Positions 29,065 through 41,631 of a DNA stretch of 64,000 bases are shown piece by piece. The DNA is from an uncultured Planctomycetia bacterium (GTDB taxonomy: Bacteria; Omnitrophota; Gorgyraeia; VGKH01; JBHPFN01), in assembly GCA_964406665.1 (NCBI GenBank), contig CAYOSQ010000002.1, positions 182,219 to 246,218 of the forward strand, written 5' to 3'. The notes below the pieces were generated by a model. The model was not told the origin of the DNA, did not search any database, and saw only the letters and a program-made list of their open reading frames with translations. The translations under genes and the position numbers were made by a program. Within the stretch, counting starts at the first letter, position 1. The number at the start of each line of letters is the position of its first letter.

Positions 29065-30567
29065 CTATAACCTTTGCCAGGAAATAATAGACATCCTCCA
29101 GATAGGGTCATCACCGATCATTCCGGGCGGAAGATTACTGACGGTCTGAGGAACTTGGTAAATCTTTGGTACCTGACCTCCTAAATCAAAAAAATTAGAA
29201 ATAATTGTTCCCATTATATTAGTTTGCTTTGCCATAATTATTTTATTCTCCGCATAAAATAACCCCATAATATCAAGTTGGGCCTGAGATCCTAAAGTCA
29301 TATCATTGGGAGTCATTATACCTAAGATATTTGTTGGATAAGAATTATTGCCCGGGGTAAGAAGATTCGTATCTATCTGTATATTTCCTTCGCTTAAGAT
29401 TGTGCCACCGGCACCTCCGGAATTGGTATATAGAATTGTATTATTTTTGTCATCCATGACAAAGTCTCCCTCGATATAAACAATGCCATCGATAACCATG
29501 TTACCGCTTCCATCCATTGATATTGTTCCATTTGCATTAGTATAATTAAAATTCGAAGTAACATCTATGTTTGCCAACTGAGCCAATTCCCCGGGATCGC
29601 TAATAACTAATGCATTGGCCCGCAAGTAATCCTGATAAGTTGCATATCCAGGATAAGGATCAGATAAGCTTGGAAATACAACAGTGTCACCTAAATCGTA
29701 CGCATTTGACCAGCCATTGTCTGAATGAACATTGTCTGATCCTGCAGTTCCGCCAAAACCATCAGTTACAAAAGAACCATCAATTGTTTCTTTAATCCCA
29801 TTGCCAAAGATATCAGGTTGACCGGCAGTTGCAGCTCCGCTTAAGCCAACCATCCCTCTTTTTACTCTCAGTTCTGCATTTATGGTAGAGATGACTTCTC
29901 CGTTAAATAGTACTGTTGGCAAAGCAGGAACTTTAGCTTCTAAGGTGGGATCTAATCCTGAATAATTATTTCCTATTAACTCTGCAGTCCCGCCTAAATC
30001 AACTACATACTCTGTGGGATCAAGGCCTGTTCCTAAAATATGCACAGACCCGCGAACATCCACGCAACCATTGATCGTAGTACCGGCAGCACCCTGGCCA
30101 GCAAAAATAGCATTATCCCAAATAGTAGATCTACTCATAACTCCATATACCTGCAATATTTGAGAAACATCTCCATATGTTCCCTGAGATTTTAACCAAA
30201 CTGCTGTTGAAGAGACAGTCTTAATTTTTACTTCATAAGAACCACCTGATATTGCTGTAGAAGGATAATCCATTGTATAAAAACCATCTGCATCCGGACC
30301 GCTTAAAGTAATACTATTTATTACTCCGCCACTCCAATCTTGATCTAAGATATATTCTGCACGTAAATCGTAAATTCCTTGCTCAAGCCCTGCCTCTGCA
30401 ATATTAAAAGCTAAGGCGATCATTTTCTGGCGTTGTGAGATATTATTTTCATTTAGACTCATCATCATAATAGCTGCACCTAAAATACTAAATACAACAA
30501 CTATTATTAGAACCATTACCAGTGCACTTGCTTTTTTGTTTGTCATCATTGTTCCTTTGCAAAACAT
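29065..30567 (-). CDS. Type IV pilus assembly protein, PilX-like minor pilin (large).
   Basis: N-terminus MMTNKKASALVMVLIIVVVFSILGAAIMMMSL...AFNIAEAGLEQG fits the PilX N-terminal domain pattern. The true start is probably one of the internal Mets (MMTNKK). Confidence 0.65.
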   Translation of the reverse strand: MFCKGTMMTNKKASALVMVLIIVVVFSILGAAIMMMSLNENNISQRQKMIALAFNIAEAGLEQGIYDLRAEYILDQDWSGGVINSITLSGPDADGFYTMDYPSTAISGGSYEVKIKTVSSTAVWLKSQGTYGDVSQILQVYGVMSRSTIWDNAIFAGQGAAGTTINGCVDVRGSVHILGTGLDPTEYVVDLGGTAELIGNNYSGLDPTLEAKVPALPTVLFNGEVISTINAELRVKRGMVGLSGAATAGQPDIFGNGIKETIDGSFVTDGFGGTAGSDNVHSDNGWSNAYDLGDTVVFPSLSDPYPGYATYQDYLRANALVISDPGELAQLANIDVTSNFNYTNANGTISMDGSGNMVIDGIVYIEGDFVMDDKNNTILYTNSGGAGGTILSEGNIQIDTNLLTPGNNSYPTNILGIMTPNDMTLGSQAQLDIMGLFYAENKIIMAKQTNIMGTIISNFFDLGGQVPKIYQVPQTVSNLPPGMIGDDPIWRMSIISWQRL

Positions 30568-30571
30568 TAAA

Positions 30572-31102
30572 TTAATTTCTCAAGTTTACATCAAAAATAT
30601 TAGATACCGTTATAGTAAGACCTTTAAAAGTATTCTTTTCAGCTACTAAACTAACTTCAACCATTTCAGGAGTAGTAGACTCTCTAATAAATTCAATAGA
30701 TGCTATGTTGTGAGCAATCACAGTAATATCTGTACCACCTTCTGTCCGTTGTAATTCTGTCCCTGCTAGAGCATACTGTATCGAATCTGGAGCCCAAGAG
30801 ATATTTCCCCCAGCCATTCCGTTACAAACATTAAAAATAGCTGAAGTGTCTACTTCTCCATCTGCTTCTACAGAGATTTGAGAAGCGCCTGACTGACGCA
30901 ATTCATCAGATATATGAGTTATAGCTTTTCTGATTTCCTGCTGCAATTCAGTTTGACCACTGTTTATCTGCCAAGAGTCATTACCTACAGTCAAAACGGC
31001 TAAAAAGATAGAACTAACAAGTAGCAATATAAAAGTTGTAACCAGTGTTTCTACAAGAGTAAAACCTCTGAAATTTAATTTTGAGCTGAACAATCTTTTC
31101 AT
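30572..31102 (-). CDS. Prepilin-type N-terminal cleavage/methylation-domain protein (PilW/pseudopilin-like).
   Basis: RGFTLVETLVTTFILLLVS class-III signal (G|FTLVE). Confidence 0.75.
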   Translation of the reverse strand: MKRLFSSKLNFRGFTLVETLVTTFILLLVSSIFLAVLTVGNDSWQINSGQTELQQEIRKAITHISDELRQSGASQISVEADGEVDTSAIFNVCNGMAGGNISWAPDSIQYALAGTELQRTEGGTDITVIAHNIASIEFIRESTTPEMVEVSLVAEKNTFKGLTITVSNIFDVNLRN

Positions 31103-31104
31103 AA

Positions 31105-31449
31105 TTATTCTCTTCTTGCTATATTTGTAATTAAAGTCGCCAAAGAATCAAGTATGCCGTCACCGTCATCAGGTTCTCCCGCGTCAAGCTCACCATTTAA
31201 ATTAAGATCTGCCCCAACTATGCGCCCGCTTTTGGTTCTCCAGCATATAACAATAGTAATTTCAAACAAATCTGGGTTTGAATCATTAATATAAATTGAC
31301 CCTATACCAGTAGGTTGGGTAGTTTCAAAGGTATTTCCTGGTGTCCCACCTGAAATATAATCAGTTGTAATGAGATCATAATTAGAGTTTCTAATCTCAT
31401 CAAGCTTCGACTGTGCTTCGCTAATAGCAAATGTAGTATCGCGAGACAA
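31105..31449 (-). pseudogene. C-terminal portion of a PilV-like minor pilin. It lacks its own signal or TM segment, and its frame continues upstream to 31485, overlapping the next ORF. Probable frameshift.
   Basis: No SD or ATG start (the track uses TTG). The upstream in-frame extension is KIFVDCSSLTE. The C-terminal ...TIVICWRTKSGRI pattern is pseudopilin-like. Confidence 0.45.
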
Positions 31450-33918: not shown

Positions 33919-35409
33919 CTAGCGATATCTTTCTTCTGAAATAAGATTTCTTTTTTCGTCAAATGTTTTTTTATTAACTGCTACACCTTGTTCATATAGA
34001 ATTTCAGAGAGCAACACACCTTCTATGCTATACTCTCTTGCTAATCCGTCTAATATATCGTTTTTGTATGTTTCTTCACCTCTGAGTTTGCCGTTTTCAT
34101 GATAATCTCTAACAGTCCCCTGAAGCTTCCCGTCGGTATAGTTGGCAGCTGTCTCCATTCTTCCATTTTTGTAATAAAGCATAATACCGCCGTGAAGCTT
34201 ACCGTCTTTTCGGCTGAGCCTTGATTTAATTGTTCCATTATCATAGTATTCATAAGCTGCTTCTAGAATAATTTTTCCCTTTACGTCATAATTAACCTGC
34301 TGTGTCGTTTTACCATTCTCATAATACGTCACTCTCATTAAATTTCCACCAATATAGTAATCCCGGGCAGCACCTTCTATCTTATTATCCCTATAAGTCT
34401 TCTCAGATTGAATCTTTCCATCTTTATAATATCTCTTGCTGACTCCGTGAATTTTATAATTAACATAAGGGATTTCGGCTGCAAGTTCTCCGGTATTGTA
34501 GAATTCTTTCTTTATCCCTTCAATCTTTCCTTTAATATATCTAGCCTGAGATCTTAGCCGGCCATTTTTATGATATATTTTACGGGTTCCCTCAATCCTC
34601 CCATTGACAAAAATCTCCTCAATTTCTAGTTCTCCGGTTTTAAAATAATGCTTCCCCGGTCCGTCAGCATTACCATTTTTATAGATTATTTCAGAGGCGA
34701 GCTGTCCATTTACATGATAATATTTGCGCTTGCCGTGCTTTCTTCCGTTAACATAAGGTTGAATAACAGAAATTTGCCCTGTCTTATAATAAGTTTTTTT
34801 CAATCCGTGGCGCCTTCCACTTTTCATAGCGGTAATGGATTCTATTTTTCCGTTTGGCCAGTATTTCTTTTTATAGGTTGTTCTAAATTTATTATTTAAG
34901 GTTATGGCAATAGTTAAAATACTCCCCAAAATGCAGGTCAGCAGAAAGCCTATAACAACTTTTTTTATAGGGATTCTTTTCTTCGCAACCACTTCTGCAT
35001 CAGGTAATACATCCATCTTTTCAGATGCCTTAAACTGATCTCTTACCTTTTTTCTGGTAAAGAAAACAATAAAAACTGTTGCAAAGACCAGAGGCACAAC
35101 GGCTAAATTAAATACAGGAGAAGTACGATATATTCTTCCATGTTTAATTATGGGCATTAATCCGAAAAAAAACCCTGGAAGCGAGCTTAATAATATAGCG
35201 ATTGAAAGCAACAGTGACAGAAACCATCCGATTATATTCAAACGAAATACAAGAATTCCTGAGATAAACACCAGCATTCCAATCAAGCCCACCCTTATAA
35301 ACACAATTCCACCGCTAAAAAGAGCAAAAATGCTGCTAGTAATTGCTAATCCTAGCAGCATTTCAAATATGCTTATTAAGGTTACACCTATTGATCTCTT
35401 CTGAGTCAT
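33919..35409 (-). CDS. Polytopic membrane protein with C-terminal MORN-variant (YwqK-like) repeats.
   Basis: About four N-terminal TM helices, then at least 10 repeats of the form G.....Y..NG.L..E..Y.NG...G (for example KTYYKTGQISVIQPYVNGRKHG). Confidence 0.6.
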   Translation of the reverse strand: MTQKRSIGVTLISIFEMLLGLAITSSIFALFSGGIVFIRVGLIGMLVFISGILVFRLNIIGWFLSLLLSIAILLSSLPGFFFGLMPIIKHGRIYRTSPVFNLAVVPLVFATVFIVFFTRKKVRDQFKASEKMDVLPDAEVVAKKRIPIKKVVIGFLLTCILGSILTIAITLNNKFRTTYKKKYWPNGKIESITAMKSGRRHGLKKTYYKTGQISVIQPYVNGRKHGKRKYYHVNGQLASEIIYKNGNADGPGKHYFKTGELEIEEIFVNGRIEGTRKIYHKNGRLRSQARYIKGKIEGIKKEFYNTGELAAEIPYVNYKIHGVSKRYYKDGKIQSEKTYRDNKIEGAARDYYIGGNLMRVTYYENGKTTQQVNYDVKGKIILEAAYEYYDNGTIKSRLSRKDGKLHGGIMLYYKNGRMETAANYTDGKLQGTVRDYHENGKLRGEETYKNDILDGLAREYSIEGVLLSEILYEQGVAVNKKTFDEKRNLISEERYR

Positions 35410-35794: not shown

Positions 35795-36022
35795 ATGTCA
35801 AAAACTAATATAATTCTCATCGCAGTAATTGCCGTTTCACTCTTTGTAATATTCATCCTCTCGAATAATAAAACCCCTGAAGTTTCTATCCCTCAAGGAG
35901 ATATAAAGGAACTACCTCCTCAACTTCGCAACGCTATAAGTGAATTGAACAAAGAAGAATATGAAGGTCTTTCTCAAAAACAGATAGAGGAAAAATTTAA
36001 ACAAAAGGGAATCCGGTTTTGA
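35795..36022 (+). CDS. Small membrane-anchored protein, hypothetical.
   Basis: N-terminal TM helix; overlaps the next gene by 4 nt. Confidence 0.5.
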   Translation: MSKTNIILIAVIAVSLFVIFILSNNKTPEVSIPQGDIKELPPQLRNAISELNKEEYEGLSQKQIEEKFKQKGIRF

Positions 36023-36453
36023 ACCTAAAGAAGAAATCCTTTACTATTATTGAAATAGTTATTGTTATATTAATCTTAGGTATTTTATCTGCCGTTGCCC
36101 TTCCTGGGATGTTTGATCTTACTTCAGATGCTAAAAATGCATCGGATGACTATACAATAGCTGCAATATTTGGTTTGGTAAATAACCTATATATGGAGAG
36201 CGCATTAAACTCCGCCACCTCTTCATATCCCACAATGACTCAAATTGTAAATAATCTTACCCAACCGATTTTCTATAACGGCCTTACTGCCAACGAGTGG
36301 TCTTATATTGAAGTTTTTGGTGGTAATATTATTGTCTTGTATTGCCCGCACGGAATTACTGGGGTAGGTAGGCGCTATTGGGTATATTTCCGCATTGATT
36401 TCCCCCCTTATGGTGCAGGAAGTATCGTAGAATTCGGCTCCGGCCCTCACTAA
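36019..36453 (+). CDS. Type IV pilin / pseudopilin with a prepilin N-terminal cleavage/methylation domain.
   Basis: KKKSFTIIEIVIVILILGILSAVALP (G/S|FTIIE class-III signal). Confidence 0.8.
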   Translation: MNLKKKSFTIIEIVIVILILGILSAVALPGMFDLTSDAKNASDDYTIAAIFGLVNNLYMESALNSATSSYPTMTQIVNNLTQPIFYNGLTANEWSYIEVFGGNIIVLYCPHGITGVGRRYWVYFRIDFPPYGAGSIVEFGSGPH

Positions 36454-36628
36454 TAAATTCGTACTCTCGCTAAAACCTAGTCTATTCTGCCCCGACCGCA
36501 AGCGGTCTGGATTGTTTACGCGAAGCGTAACCCTTTAGGGCTTCGTCCAAACGACTTATCTCCAGTGATTTACCTCACTGTCCATAAGTCGTGGCCACGC
36601 TAAAATTACAGGCGCCTAGAAAATTGGC

Positions 36629-36786
36629 GACGACATAAGTTATGGGGTGCTAAGCACGACGTAACTTATAGGTCGGAAGCCATCCCGCAAAGCGGGACAG
36701 ACGACATAAGTTATTGAGTGCTAAGCACGACGCAACTTATAGGTCGGAAGCCATCCCGCAAAGCGGGACAGACGATATAAGTTATG
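36629..36786 (+). repeat. Tandem direct repeat, unit A, 71 bp, about 2.2 copies.
   Basis: gacgacataagttat[g/t]g[g/a]gtgctaagcacgacg[t/c]aacttataggtcggaagccatcccgcaaagcgggaca is repeated head-to-tail at 36629 and 36700, with a partial third copy at 36771. Confidence 0.85.
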
Positions 36787-36960
36787 GACAGCACCGAAGG
36801 TGCAGGAAGATAAGTGATTATGTGCGCAGCCGCACCGACGCTTTTATCGGTGCAAAACAAGCACATCACTTAACGACAGCACCGAAGGTGCAGGAAGATA
36901 AGCGATTATGTGCGCAGTCGCACCGACGCTTTTATCGGTGCAAAACAAGCACAACATTAG
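36787..36960 (+). repeat. Tandem direct repeat, unit B, 88 bp, 2 copies.
   Basis: gacagcaccgaaggtgcaggaagataag[t/c]gattatgtgcgcag[c/t]cgcaccgacgcttttatcggtgcaaaacaagcaca... starts at 36787 and 36875. Each copy folds into a multi-stem structure. Confidence 0.85.
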
Positions 36961-36975
36961 CATCTCTACTAAAAA

Positions 36976-37020
36976 GGGCAGTCCTATAAATCATATTGGA
37001 CTGCCCCTAAAGCTTTTCTT
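36976..37020 (+). terminator. Rho-independent terminator closing the pilin / repeat-RNA transcript.
   Basis: gggcagtcc-N13-ggactgccc is a 9-bp GC stem followed by ctaaagcttttctt. Confidence 0.75.
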
Positions 37021-37048
37021 AATGCAAAGTACGTACTCGAATTTTCAG

Positions 37049-37156
37049 CTACTTCTTTTTAAGTGCATCTAGTACTTTATACAGCGTCTGCCTCATATCG
37101 TTTAAAAAGTAACAAATAGCAATGATCCCTAAAAGGATTAAAATATCTAATAACAT
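37049..37156 (-). CDS. 35-aa small hydrophobic protein (not in the track) with a strong SD.
   Basis: My translation: MLLDILILLGIIAICYFLNDMRQTLYKVLDALKKK, preceded by aaggaggtgataat-ATG. Confidence 0.5.
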   Translation of the reverse strand: MLLDILILLGIIAICYFLNDMRQTLYKVLDALKKK

Positions 37157-37204
37157 ATTATCACCTCCTTATTTCTTTAAAATTCTTAATAACAAAGCGT
37201 AAAA

Positions 37205-37579
37205 CTATAATAGTTTCTTGATATCTTCTAAAATCGCTCGGGCTGTGGTCTCATCACCCACACCAACACGAATTTCAATCTTCACATTTTTGGAACCTTT
37301 AACAAAAATATCAACAGCAACTTTCTTATCAGTCTGATCAGTACCACGAAGTTGAGTTACTCCACTCTTAGCAACCTTTTCAGTCAAGGCAATCTTTCTA
37401 GTTTCAAATACTTTTTCTGTTGCTGATACAGCCTCTATCATAGAAACATTTTCTTCAGAAATAATCTTTCCTGCTTGCCATAGTGCAGTTCCACCGGCAC
37501 CGGCCAATACTGCAACGCATCCACACAAGGTTATACTCATTATAACCAATAAAAAAGCACTAAACACCCTTCTTGCCAT
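37205..37579 (-). CDS. Hypothetical lipoprotein.
   Basis: Signal peptide plus lipobox ITLCGC. Confidence 0.55.
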   Translation of the reverse strand: MARRVFSAFLLVIMSITLCGCVAVLAGAGGTALWQAGKIISEENVSMIEAVSATEKVFETRKIALTEKVAKSGVTQLRGTDQTDKKVAVDIFVKGSKNVKIEIRVGVGDETTARAILEDIKKLL

Positions 37580-37800: not shown

Positions 37801-37864
37801 TATAAAAGTACGTACTCAAGTACGTACTTTTATATCTATCGCTACTACGTAGTGACTACGTAGT
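37801..37864. promoter_or_regulatory. Cluster of perfect palindromes: a 34-bp palindrome TATAAAAGTACGTAC-tcaa-GTACGTACTTTTATA, plus two tandem copies of the 10-bp palindrome ACTACGTAGT. Candidate operator sites or a bidirectional terminator.
   Basis: Read directly. The half-site AAAGTACGTACT recurs at 37026-37037, on the other side of the lipoprotein and small-ORF unit. Confidence 0.5.
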
Positions 37865-39323: not shown

Positions 39324-39462
39324 TTACCCTCTTTCGAACTACTTACGCGCAAATAAGCTTCTGATTGCATTCTATATCTAATCTCTAAAGCTGTCAATGT
39401 GTTATGCTTTAAAAATCATTAGTAAAAATCATTAGGACCGGTTCTATATATCTTATGCAATA

Positions 39463-39975
39463 TCAAGATGTTGAAAAAGAACTGTCCCCGAATCTATCTA
39501 GAGAAATATTATTTTGTATTATATCATTATTTATACTGTGATAAAGATAAAAATTGCTCCAAGGGTATTCTTCTGGGTTGTTTACCATCTTAGCTCTTAT
39601 TGGGTTATTATGAATATATTCTATACATTCTCTGATGTAATGGTCTTGTTCAATTACGTTACTTTTAAATCTTCCCTGGAAAAGATGGCCTATATAACTG
39701 TGTGACTTACGAAAAGAAAGGCCATAAGAAAGCATAATCGATTGCATGATTCTGGATATAGTATAGGGGTGGATGACTTCTATTACGATATGAAAATGAT
39801 TATCCATAAGGCAGAAGCCGTATAGCTTAAAAGAGAAACGTTCTTTGAATTTTGAGAGAACTTTTAGAAAAGTAATTTTATCTTCCTTTTCTTTTAAGAT
39901 CATTTGTCGATTGTTACCACGGGCGGTAACATGATAAACTGCGCTGCTGTAGTAGATTCTTCGCTGTCTAACCAT
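39463..39975 (-). CDS. IS200-like Y1 HUH transposase of the REP-associated tyrosine transposase (RAYT) type, stand-alone.
   Basis: HVTARGNNRQMI...CLMDNHFHIVIEV (HUH motif), GHLFQGRFKS, YIHNNPIRAKMV, EYPWSNF. No terminal inverted repeats or second IS gene were seen. Confidence 0.75.
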   Translation of the reverse strand: MVRQRRIYYSSAVYHVTARGNNRQMILKEKEDKITFLKVLSKFKERFSFKLYGFCLMDNHFHIVIEVIHPYTISRIMQSIMLSYGLSFRKSHSYIGHLFQGRFKSNVIEQDHYIRECIEYIHNNPIRAKMVNNPEEYPWSNFYLYHSINNDIIQNNISLDRFGDSSFSTS

Positions 39976-40081
39976 AGTAGGGACACTTCTTTAGCAAGTT
40001 GTTAGCTCATATATAGTTATTGAGAACCGGTCATTATTTTTGTTATTATTTTTGTCTTTTTTTTGAAAAATGTTTACGGAA

Positions 40082-40485: not shown

Positions 40486-41631
40486 TTATGGCATATCAGG
40501 AAACCCGGGTGTCCATCCATCAATAGGAACATCTCCGCCAGCTCCATATATTACACTATTCACAGCGAAATTGCTATTATGATCTGTGGCTATATAAGAA
40601 AACTTACCAACAAAGGTAGATTCATAAAATGCAATATTTTCTTGTAATGCACTCATATTTATATCCACATTAAATGACTCAACATAACGACCGCCTAAAG
40701 ATAAAGATTTTTCTGTACAATTATGGGTTCCCCATCCTGATAAATTGTCTACTTTGTTAGTTGTTGTTATTTGACGAGCCATAGGATCAGGTCCCATTTC
40801 AAACTTACCGTTTTTTAGCTGATCAGAAATAATCGCCCGATGTCTTGGCCCAGTTGTACTTCCTGGATCATTAGCTAAATTCTTGCCCAATGGTCTTTGG
40901 ACTATTCCAACAGTACTATCTTTCTGATTCGCATTTAGGGCATATCTTGCTCTCATTTCTGTGGCGTATTCATTAAATTGTGCATCTCTATTTGAAACCC
41001 AACCATCGCCTGCTTTCCAGTTTTGAAATTGTTCCGATTTAGCAACGCCTGAACTGAGAGCTCCACCGGTAATTCCTCCAGTAAATCCTCCAGCAAAGCT
41101 ATCCCAGCTATCGGTTGTGCCTGCGGCTCCTGCGCCAACAACAAACATCCCTGCCAGAACACCGTAATGTTCACCGCCAATAGCCCATCCTCCAAGCCCA
41201 CCCAGGGCTCCTCCTGCGGCTGCACCTATCAGCATTCCTTTCCAGCCACCCTCAAGGCCTCCTGTAATGGCGCCACCCAATGACCCTCCAATAATACCTG
41301 CCATTGTTGTACCAACTAGAGCAAAACCAGCAGGACCAAGAAGAACTGCTGCAGCAGCACCCACAAATGCTCCTGCAAAGCTATTCCAAAACTTCTTCCA
41401 TGACCAATGACCAGAAGGATCTATTCTATTTACAGGATTGTTTAAACAGTAAGAATATCTATTTAAACTCTGAGGATTATGCGGACCGGGTACTATCGTA
41501 TCAGCTGTTATAAATCTGCCAATGAGCGGATTATAATATCTAGCTCCATTCAGCTCAAAAAAAGTTTTAAAGTCGGTAAATAAGATTATTCTTAAATAAA
41601 CAAAAGTAGGATGCTTGTTAAAAAAAATCAA
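40486..41631 (-). CDS. Orphan RHS-repeat-associated C-terminal toxin module. It keeps only the last ~30 aa of the RHS core, followed by a glycine-zipper-rich region and a roughly 200-aa C-terminal domain of unknown activity.
   Basis: ARYYNPLIGRFITADTIVPGPHNPQSLNRYSYCLNNPVNRIDPSGH is the canonical RHS core end (YYDP..GRF...DP; the DPxG autocleavage site). No N-terminal RHS body or promoter space is present (only 5 bp to the divergent kinase gene). Confidence 0.75.
   Translation of the reverse strand: MIFFNKHPTFVYLRIILFTDFKTFFELNGARYYNPLIGRFITADTIVPGPHNPQSLNRYSYCLNNPVNRIDPSGHWSWKKFWNSFAGAFVGAAAAVLLGPAGFALVGTTMAGIIGGSLGGAITGGLEGGWKGMLIGAAAGGALGGLGGWAIGGEHYGVLAGMFVVGAGAAGTTDSWDSFAGGFTGGITGGALSSGVAKSEQFQNWKAGDGWVSNRDAQFNEYATEMRARYALNANQKDSTVGIVQRPLGKNLANDPGSTTGPRHRAIISDQLKNGKFEMGPDPMARQITTTNKVDNLSGWGTHNCTEKSLSLGGRYVESFNVDINMSALQENIAFYESTFVGKFSYIATDHNSNFAVNSVIYGAGGDVPIDGWTPGFPDMP

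Follow-up and report, generated by a model that had tools for sequence, protein, structure and literature searches.

Locus and flanking genes

The element described here is a GC-rich, hairpin-dense tandem repeat in a stretch of 64,000 nucleotides of contig CAYOSQ010000002.1 (hereafter the window), derived from an uncultured bacterium of the phylum Omnitrophota. It fills the spacer between two convergent transcription units, of which the plus-strand unit ends with a type IV pilin-like gene and the minus-strand unit contains a DUF3568 family gene. The spacer measures 595 nt from the pilin stop at 36453 to the stop of a 35-aa open reading frame (ORF) at 37049, and 737 nt in some strains. The results point, tentatively, to a non-coding minisatellite of hairpins that is specific to one lineage and probably lies in the 3' untranslated region (UTR) of the pilin transcript.

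The plus-strand pair comprises a 75-aa orphan ORF (35795..36022, +) and, with a 4-nt overlap at its start, the 144-aa type IV pilin-like gene (36019..36453, +), the product of which carries the prepilin N-terminal methylation motif (PF07963 N_methyl, 24.2 bits). The pilin gene had been reported by an earlier first-pass annotation of this DNA to end 17 bp before the element, in agreement with the stop at 36453. A Pfam search with the 75-aa ORF gave no match, and among 5.8e9 proteins neither it nor the pilin-like protein had relatives beyond its own cluster. The pair (35795-36453) forms a plus-strand islet within a run of minus-strand genes and adjoins a cluster of pseudopilin and PilX_N genes (29065-31449).

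In the convergent operon the DUF3568 family gene (37205..37579, -; PF12092, 68.7 bits) is followed by the last gene, a small hydrophobic ORF of 35 aa (37049..37156, -) with the sequence MLLDILILLGIIAICYFLNDMRQTLYKVLDALKKK and a strong Shine-Dalgarno sequence, AGGAGGUG. This ORF was missed in the ORF list, for which the threshold was at least 40 aa; it is a called gene in all strain contigs covering 37049-37156.

Repeat architecture and predicted folding

Tandem Repeats Finder (TRF) resolved two successive arrays, one at 36629-36788 with a period of 71 and 2.3 copies (94% matches) and one at 36787-36953 with a period of 88 and 1.9 copies (97% matches), in good agreement with the approximately 2.2 and 2 copies described in the first-pass annotation. 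Both arrays are preceded by approximately 140 nt of single-copy hairpins (36490-36628). The first of these, P1 (36494..36507, +), lies 40 nt past the pilin stop and consists of GACCG-CAAG-CGGTC followed by UGGAUUGUUU, with a folding energy of -10.1 kcal/mol. Next is a non-repeated segment (36514..36552, +) for which mutually exclusive small hairpins are predicted, either TTACGC-GAA-GCGTAA or GCGAAGC...GCUUCGU around CCC-UUUA-GGG; folding of this segment alone is weak (z -1.6). The third hairpin, H0 (36551..36592, +), is present in single copy 5' of the repeats and has a 9-bp outer stem (ACGACUUAU/AUAAGUCGU), an internal loop and a 6-bp inner stem. H0 folds with -18.3 kcal/mol (z -6.3) and was also found as an inverted repeat.

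The unit A array (36629..36788, +) contains the copies A1 and A2 and a partial A3, as defined by TRF, folding and strain alignment. Each 71-nt unit is predicted to form a long hairpin, with a stem of CGAC and AUAAGUU and an apical GUGC-UAA-GCAC, followed by a GGAAG linker and the small hairpin CCCGC-AAA-GCGGG. The unit B array (36787..36962, +) contains the 88-nt copies B1 and B2, as defined by TRF, folds, a test of energies and pair probabilities, and alignment. Unit B begins with the small hairpin GCACC-GAA-GGUGC, which is joined by an AGGAAG linker to one long interrupted hairpin with the pairs AAGUGAU/AUCACUU and GUGC/GCAC and an apical GCACCGA-N8-UCGGUGC. In the last copy, B2, which is degenerate, the outer stem has lost its 3' arm.

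A three-way junction had been proposed for unit B in the first-pass annotation. This fold cannot form because the proposed stems use eight bases twice: the hairpin gtgcg-cagc-cgcac competes for GCAC with gcaccga-N8-tcggtgc and for GTGC with the outer stem. What is left of the junction without these overlaps has a predicted energy of -18.6 kcal/mol compared with -30.2 kcal/mol for the long interrupted hairpin (minimum free energy, MFE, -32.0), and the pair probability of the gtgcg-cagc-cgcac hairpin was 0.000.

When A1 was compared with its own reverse complement the z-score was 13.5, and each unit holds a long imperfect palindrome. The possibility that units A and B are diverged paralogues, usable for an internal test of covariation, was considered and rejected; the MAFFT alignment was suggestive, and the z-score of the local alignment was only 1.3-1.5 versus shuffles. 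The two units have in common just the 16-nt arm motif ATAAGTKATNNNGTGC.

The GC content was 0.49-0.53 over 36400-36950 compared with a window mean of 0.364 (150-nt windows, sd 0.048), and 12 other intergenic gaps ranged from 0.22 to 0.37 versus approximately 0.50 for the element, consistent with its earlier description as strikingly GC-rich. The segment had also been called hairpin-dense, and on the plus strand its folding energy was indeed far below that of dinucleotide shuffles (36455-37030: MFE -210.6 versus -154.5±6.0, z -9.4); the z-score of the whole region on the minus strand was -8.1 versus the same kind of control. For 36470-36965 the MFE was -186.9 versus -135.7±6.6 in shuffles. Individual units and H0 gave folding z-scores of -4.4 to -6.3, those for unit A being -5.5 and -4.4. 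The element is the sole long, GC-rich and strongly folding region in the window, the other low-energy spots being coding or one ordinary terminator. The tandem structure, the GC content, the folding relative to shuffles and the uniqueness in the window together indicate that the core observation is real and not due to chance. The concentration of GC in stems and the A-rich loops (47% A) were examined as a sign of selection or of strand and rejected, since 70 of 200 and 31 of 200 dinucleotide shuffles, respectively, matched them.

Terminators and the probable transcribed strand

A strong hairpin of 9-11 bp, GGGCAGUCC...GGACUGCCC, is located at 36976..37006 (-). It had been described in the first-pass annotation as a canonical terminator closing the element. 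On the minus strand the stem leads straight into an uninterrupted U5 run, whereas the plus-strand tail is CUAAAGCUUUUCU; the folding energy is -23.2 kcal/mol on the minus strand and -18.9 kcal/mol on the plus strand. The 35-aa ORF stops 43 nt before the hairpin. By its sequence it is predicted to be the intrinsic terminator of the minus-strand operon encoding the DUF3568 protein and the 35-aa ORF, and for plus-strand transcripts it would be a weak bidirectional stop at best. For the plus strand the scan gave a single terminator-like site, P1, a possible weak terminator of the pilin gene. The approximately 12 hairpins of the array have no U-run on either strand, and for want of a plus-strand U-run after them read-through is possible. 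A textbook intrinsic terminator at 420-455 (AAGGCCUCUGCG-UGUCA-CGCAGAGGCCUUUUGG) exemplifies the usual form in this genome, in contrast to the atypical hairpins of the array.

Both strands are able to fold, the stems being near-perfect palindromes, with the z-scores of the units slightly stronger on the plus strand. The purine fraction of the plus strand is 0.544, compared with 0.548±0.024 for the sense strands of 51 local genes, and none of these genes is as low as the 0.456 of the minus strand. Read on the plus strand, the array is downstream of the co-oriented pilin operon; read on the minus strand, it comes after the terminator of the convergent operon. The plus strand is favored because of the co-oriented operon upstream, the purine fraction and the slightly better z-scores of the units. 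A consensus scan revealed no sigma-70-like promoter for an independent transcript and likewise no terminators for single units. Thus, of the earlier proposal of a long structured 3' UTR or tandem small RNAs closed by a terminator, plus-strand transcription from the pilin operon is retained as the most plausible source of RNA, and the closing terminator is not. Transcription of the array from the pilin operon would depend on a putative read-through of P1.

Variation among strains

Several samples yielded the locus, in a total of about 20 metagenome contigs, all of them approximately 99.9% identical. In contigs L001/L009 and L008 the element is longer by exactly 142 nt (2 x 71), equal to one extra A1-A2 pair, such that unit A is present in 4.3 rather than 2.3 copies. 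Beyond this indel the element contains only two single-nucleotide polymorphisms, of which the first is in the 5' leader and the second in an internal loop. The repeat boundaries (36622, 36950 and 36952) are points at which several short metagenome contigs end. The head-to-tail copies, their number differing between close strains, identify the element as a variable-number tandem repeat (VNTR), or minisatellite. A copy number in flux within a near-clonal population is typical of minisatellites and argues against an RNA of precise dimensions.

A further difference was seen in strain contig Ga0118727_1008537 (L008/L027), in which gene calling split the MORN-repeat gene (window 33919-35409) into 412 aa and another ORF of 84 aa in place of 496 aa; the difference could be a frameshift or a rearrangement. 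The same contig also carries the expanded unit A array of 4.3 copies.

Searches for relatives, coding capacity and known RNA classes

A search with blastn-short, of the kind that the first-pass annotation had suggested for the whole genome, revealed no second copy of either unit in the window, and covariance models of the units (R1, R2) found no further copy there. Nor did these models find one in approximately 20 kb of this genome outside the window or in 43 kb from eight other Omnitrophota loci. Exact and stem-anchored pattern scans for both units returned 0 matches in GTDB species representatives, JGI contigs and IMG/VR; these collections do not include the source lineage, and the zero counts say little on dispersal within the genome itself. 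No match to the units was obtained by blastn versus plasmids and phages, and nothing on Omnitrophota non-coding RNAs (ncRNAs) was found in the literature.

The DUF3568 gene has 51 relatives, 2 of which are named Candidatus Omnitrophica by NCBI. Six relatives with 59-69% identity were inspected for synteny; they lie in entirely different contexts, and the pilin, the 35-aa ORF and a long spacer are each missing from all six. The locus was found in one near-clonal lineage only, and neither the collections searched nor the relatives of the DUF3568 gene gave a homologue in which covariation could be assessed.

The earlier statement that the segment has no credible ORF was upheld. No gene was called in the gap in the strain contigs (16 loci, several being the same contig twice), and the unit lengths of 71 and 88 nt and the 142-nt indel are not multiples of 3. 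A hidden protein-coding repeat was rejected, the only match of the longest frame among 1.84e9 representatives being P0054, an unrelated repeat protein with 32% identity over short stretches. The segment had also been said to resemble no recognizable RNA family, and Rfam 15 covariance models accordingly gave 0 matches at gathering thresholds over the whole window. With E values up to 10 over 36300-37200 the only matches were GcvB (22.3 bits, cut-off 42, minus strand) and mir-354 (17.1 bits, cut-off 50). ARAGORN found 0 tRNA or tmRNA genes in the window.

Several repeat classes were examined and rejected. A CsrA sponge of the CsrB/RsmZ type would have GGA motifs that are enriched and exposed in loops or linkers; the element has 8 GGA triplets, compared with 6.5±1.9 in dinucleotide shuffles, and only 3 of the 8 have any base unpaired in the MFE fold. 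The RNA of a type III toxin-antitoxin system (ToxI-like) would have repeats of approximately 36 nt, as opposed to units of 71 and 88 nt, with a toxin gene behind them on the same strand, whereas the genes beyond the array are convergent and none is on the plus strand. The units abut head-to-tail without spacers, which excludes a CRISPR array, and the window has no silent pilin copies as expected of a Neisseria-style pilE/pilS recombination repeat.

Flanking palindromes and other features of the window

A degenerate copy of the palindrome AAGTACGTACT is present at 36455-36466, just past the pilin stop, and one exact copy at 37027-37038 adjoins the terminator hairpin. These flanking 12-mers (36455 AAATTCGTACTC, 37027 AAGTACGTACTC) were considered as a target-site duplication and rejected because the palindrome recurs in tandem at 37806-37829; no empty site without the element was found in any strain. 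A hairpin or an operator is the more likely nature of the motif. The window contains 13 matches to the palindrome at up to 2 mismatches, compared with 2.0 expected (palindromes counted on both strands). The tandem occurrence lies between a 144-aa gene and the DUF3568 gene; there AAGTACGTACT(C/T) is present twice in succession, and 15 nt past this pair ACTACGTAGT likewise forms a tandem pair (37806-37864). The motif could be a terminator hairpin made of palindromes or a set of operators. An inverted repeat at 36419-36436 and 37038-37055 (78%) was rejected as a long-range closing stem since many chance pairs are equally good.

Farther downstream, a 381-aa ORF at 40486-41631 (-) is without a Pfam match and has the N-terminal motif YYNPLIGRFITADTIVPGP...NPVNRIDPSGH, which we take to resemble the end of an RHS/YD-repeat core. 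Its glycine-rich stretch (40976-41400) is the GC maximum of the window (0.59). The 381-aa ORF is followed in the same orientation by one of 120 aa, and the two may be a toxin tip and immunity pair.

Interpretation

The element looks like a member of the structured intergenic tandem repeats found at the 3' ends of genes and not a conserved new class of RNA. BOX elements of Streptococcus pneumoniae and mycobacterial interspersed repetitive units (MIRU-VNTR) are modular intergenic repeats of 40-100 nt with a strain-variable tandem number and a stable predicted structure, and they are co-transcribed with genes. Both families are spread over numerous loci in each genome and occur throughout a species or genus, whereas the element has a single locus in the DNA searched and is restricted to one lineage. 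It also differs from intrinsic terminators, including bidirectional terminators between convergent genes: the 36976-37006 hairpin with its U5 run is a textbook example and P1 is terminator-like, while the approximately 12 hairpins of the array have no U-runs and the U-run at 36976-37006 is on the minus strand. By analogy, we infer that the element may work like the 3' hairpin arrays of the REP (repetitive extragenic palindromic), BIME (bacterial interspersed mosaic element) or BOX type without being a member of those families.

The explanation preferred here, at somewhat less than even odds, is that the element is a lineage-specific, non-coding minisatellite of hairpins between convergent operons that is probably transcribed on the plus strand as the 3' UTR or read-through product of the pilin operon, and that it would serve as a generic barrier to exonucleases and transcription. 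The two unit types are unrelated and occupy a single locus in the approximately 84 kb of genome searched. The array would grow and shrink by slipped-strand mispairing or by unequal recombination between units. A polymerase passing the weak P1 hairpin after the pilin gene would produce a plus-strand transcript with a long structured 3' UTR, in which the GC-rich stems may act generically, by their number and stability and not through one precise fold. REP and similar 3' stem-loops are known to shield upstream mRNA from 3' exonucleases. In the same way the stems could block 3'-to-5' exonucleases and thereby stabilize the pilin message; they could also impede polymerases and, with the minus-strand terminator, insulate the two convergent operons. 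The exonuclease-barrier and road-block functions are thus suggested by analogy.

Several points weigh against this explanation. P1 might stop most pilin transcripts, leaving the array largely untranscribed, and the evidence on promoters and 3' ends comes from consensus scans. Dispersal was assessed over the approximately 84 kb of genome, the collections searched contain no homologues, and selection on the stems is therefore without the support of covariation. The GC contrast between stems and loops and the A-rich loops, being no stronger than in shuffled controls, offer no independent support. Finally, the variation in copy number and the degenerate B2 are equally compatible with a repeat that has no function.

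That the element is such a functionless, palindrome-rich minisatellite, expanding and contracting by slippage and tolerated between two 3' ends, is doubtful, though well enough grounded to be taken seriously. Near-identical strains differ in copy number, the terminal B2 copy has decayed, no relatives were found in any searched collection, and the neighboring genes are orphans in a variable region, as expected of a neutral repeat. However, an AT-biased mutation pressure should erode neutral GC-rich stems, and the element has a GC content of 0.50 versus 0.22-0.37 in other intergenic DNA. The single-copy 5' part (36490-36628) is likewise GC-rich and hairpin-dense, which suggests that the structure is older than the duplications. 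Substitutions between copies are mostly in loops or in arms already unpaired, which also speaks against neutrality, although they are too few for statistics.

It is unlikely that the element encodes a discrete, structured ncRNA, or a series of small RNAs in tandem, that serves a specific partner, for instance as a protein-binding scaffold; this corresponds to the main proposal of the first-pass annotation. In its favor, a long, GC-rich and ORF-free intergenic region (GC-IGR) in an AT-rich genome is the signature by which ncRNA candidates are discovered (PMC6429828, PMC11109978), and the element has this signature together with strong folds of the units (z -4.4 to -6.3), a modular build with the recurring arm motif ATAAGTKATNNNGTGC, and no match to a known Rfam family. 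Standing against a discrete RNA are the outcome of the scan, with neither a sigma-70-like promoter nor per-unit terminators, the varying copy number, the lack of significant similarity between units A and B (z 1.3-1.5), a proposed junction that cannot fold, and a GGA count without the enrichment of a CsrA sponge. Accepted GC-IGR candidates need multiple distinct representatives with covariation (PMC6429828, PMC11109978), whereas the element has a single near-clonal representative and no homologue, hence no covariation; by the same criteria candidates with fewer than 5 representatives are unnamed or low-ranking (PMC11109978). The missing homologues and the polymorphic copy number together place the element among the unnamed, low-ranking or mobile and repeat candidates, the commonest outcome of GC-IGR screens (PMC11109978).

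A more elaborate version, in which the array is a new modular structured RNA co-transcribed with the orphan pilin, its modules docking a protein or the machinery of pilus biogenesis or localization and its dosage tuned by the number of modules, is quite improbable.

A REP/REPIN-like array mobilized by the nearby Y1 transposase, the alternative raised in the first-pass annotation, is very improbable. In its favor, the units occupy an extragenic position between convergent genes and are imperfect palindromes rich in GC, and a Y1_Tnp gene of the IS200 type, resembling the REP-associated tyrosine transposases (RAYT), is located 2.5 kb from the element (39463-39975). REP sequences and BIMEs of E. 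coli and tandem REPINs of Pseudomonas fluorescens SBW25 share this palindromic and extragenic character and often lie at 3' ends or between convergent genes (PMC3116915, PMC3337134). Dispersed copies in the tens to hundreds per genome and the flanking of their RAYT gene define REPINs, which may also form tandem arrays of up to five (PMC3337134); thus, the tandem arrangement alone does not exclude REPINs. In contrast to these families, with hundreds of dispersed copies, RAYT flanking, and inverted doublets that form one long hairpin per REPIN, the element occupies one locus, and its 71-nt and 88-nt units are direct repeats arranged head-to-tail, with two hairpins apiece. Each unit does hold a long imperfect palindrome, alongside a small hairpin that is unrelated to it. 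Neither the dispersal nor the flanking of the transposase was observed: there is no other unit copy in approximately 84 kb of the genome or in 43 kb of other Omnitrophota, and exact-pattern scans of GTDB, JGI contigs and IMG/VR gave 0. The Y1_Tnp gene is flanked instead by an AT-rich inverted repeat of 34 nt (39420-39453 and 40015-40048; 74% complementary, with an ACCGGT core) that is single-copy in the window, unrelated to units A and B and not matched by the unit models, and that looks like the cognate ends of the transposase itself.

A role at the level of DNA, as a cruciform or a site for gyrase or a nucleoid protein relieving supercoiling between the convergent operons, as proposed for BIMEs, is likewise very improbable: it would suit the position exactly between convergent units, the near-perfect Watson-Crick palindromes with equal folding on both strands, and the presence of GCGAAGC, the sequence of a very stable DNA mini-hairpin, but the purine asymmetry fits a transcribed sense strand and only a single locus is present.

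The finding is mainly a caution, since new ncRNAs are classically recognized by just such GC-rich, hairpin-dense islands in AT-rich genomes. Should the array prove to be transcribed and active, it would be a structured 3' region evolving fast by the duplication of units beside a fast-evolving gene for a surface structure in a poorly studied, uncultivated phylum, and it would also be a handy VNTR marker for strains of this Omnitrophota population.

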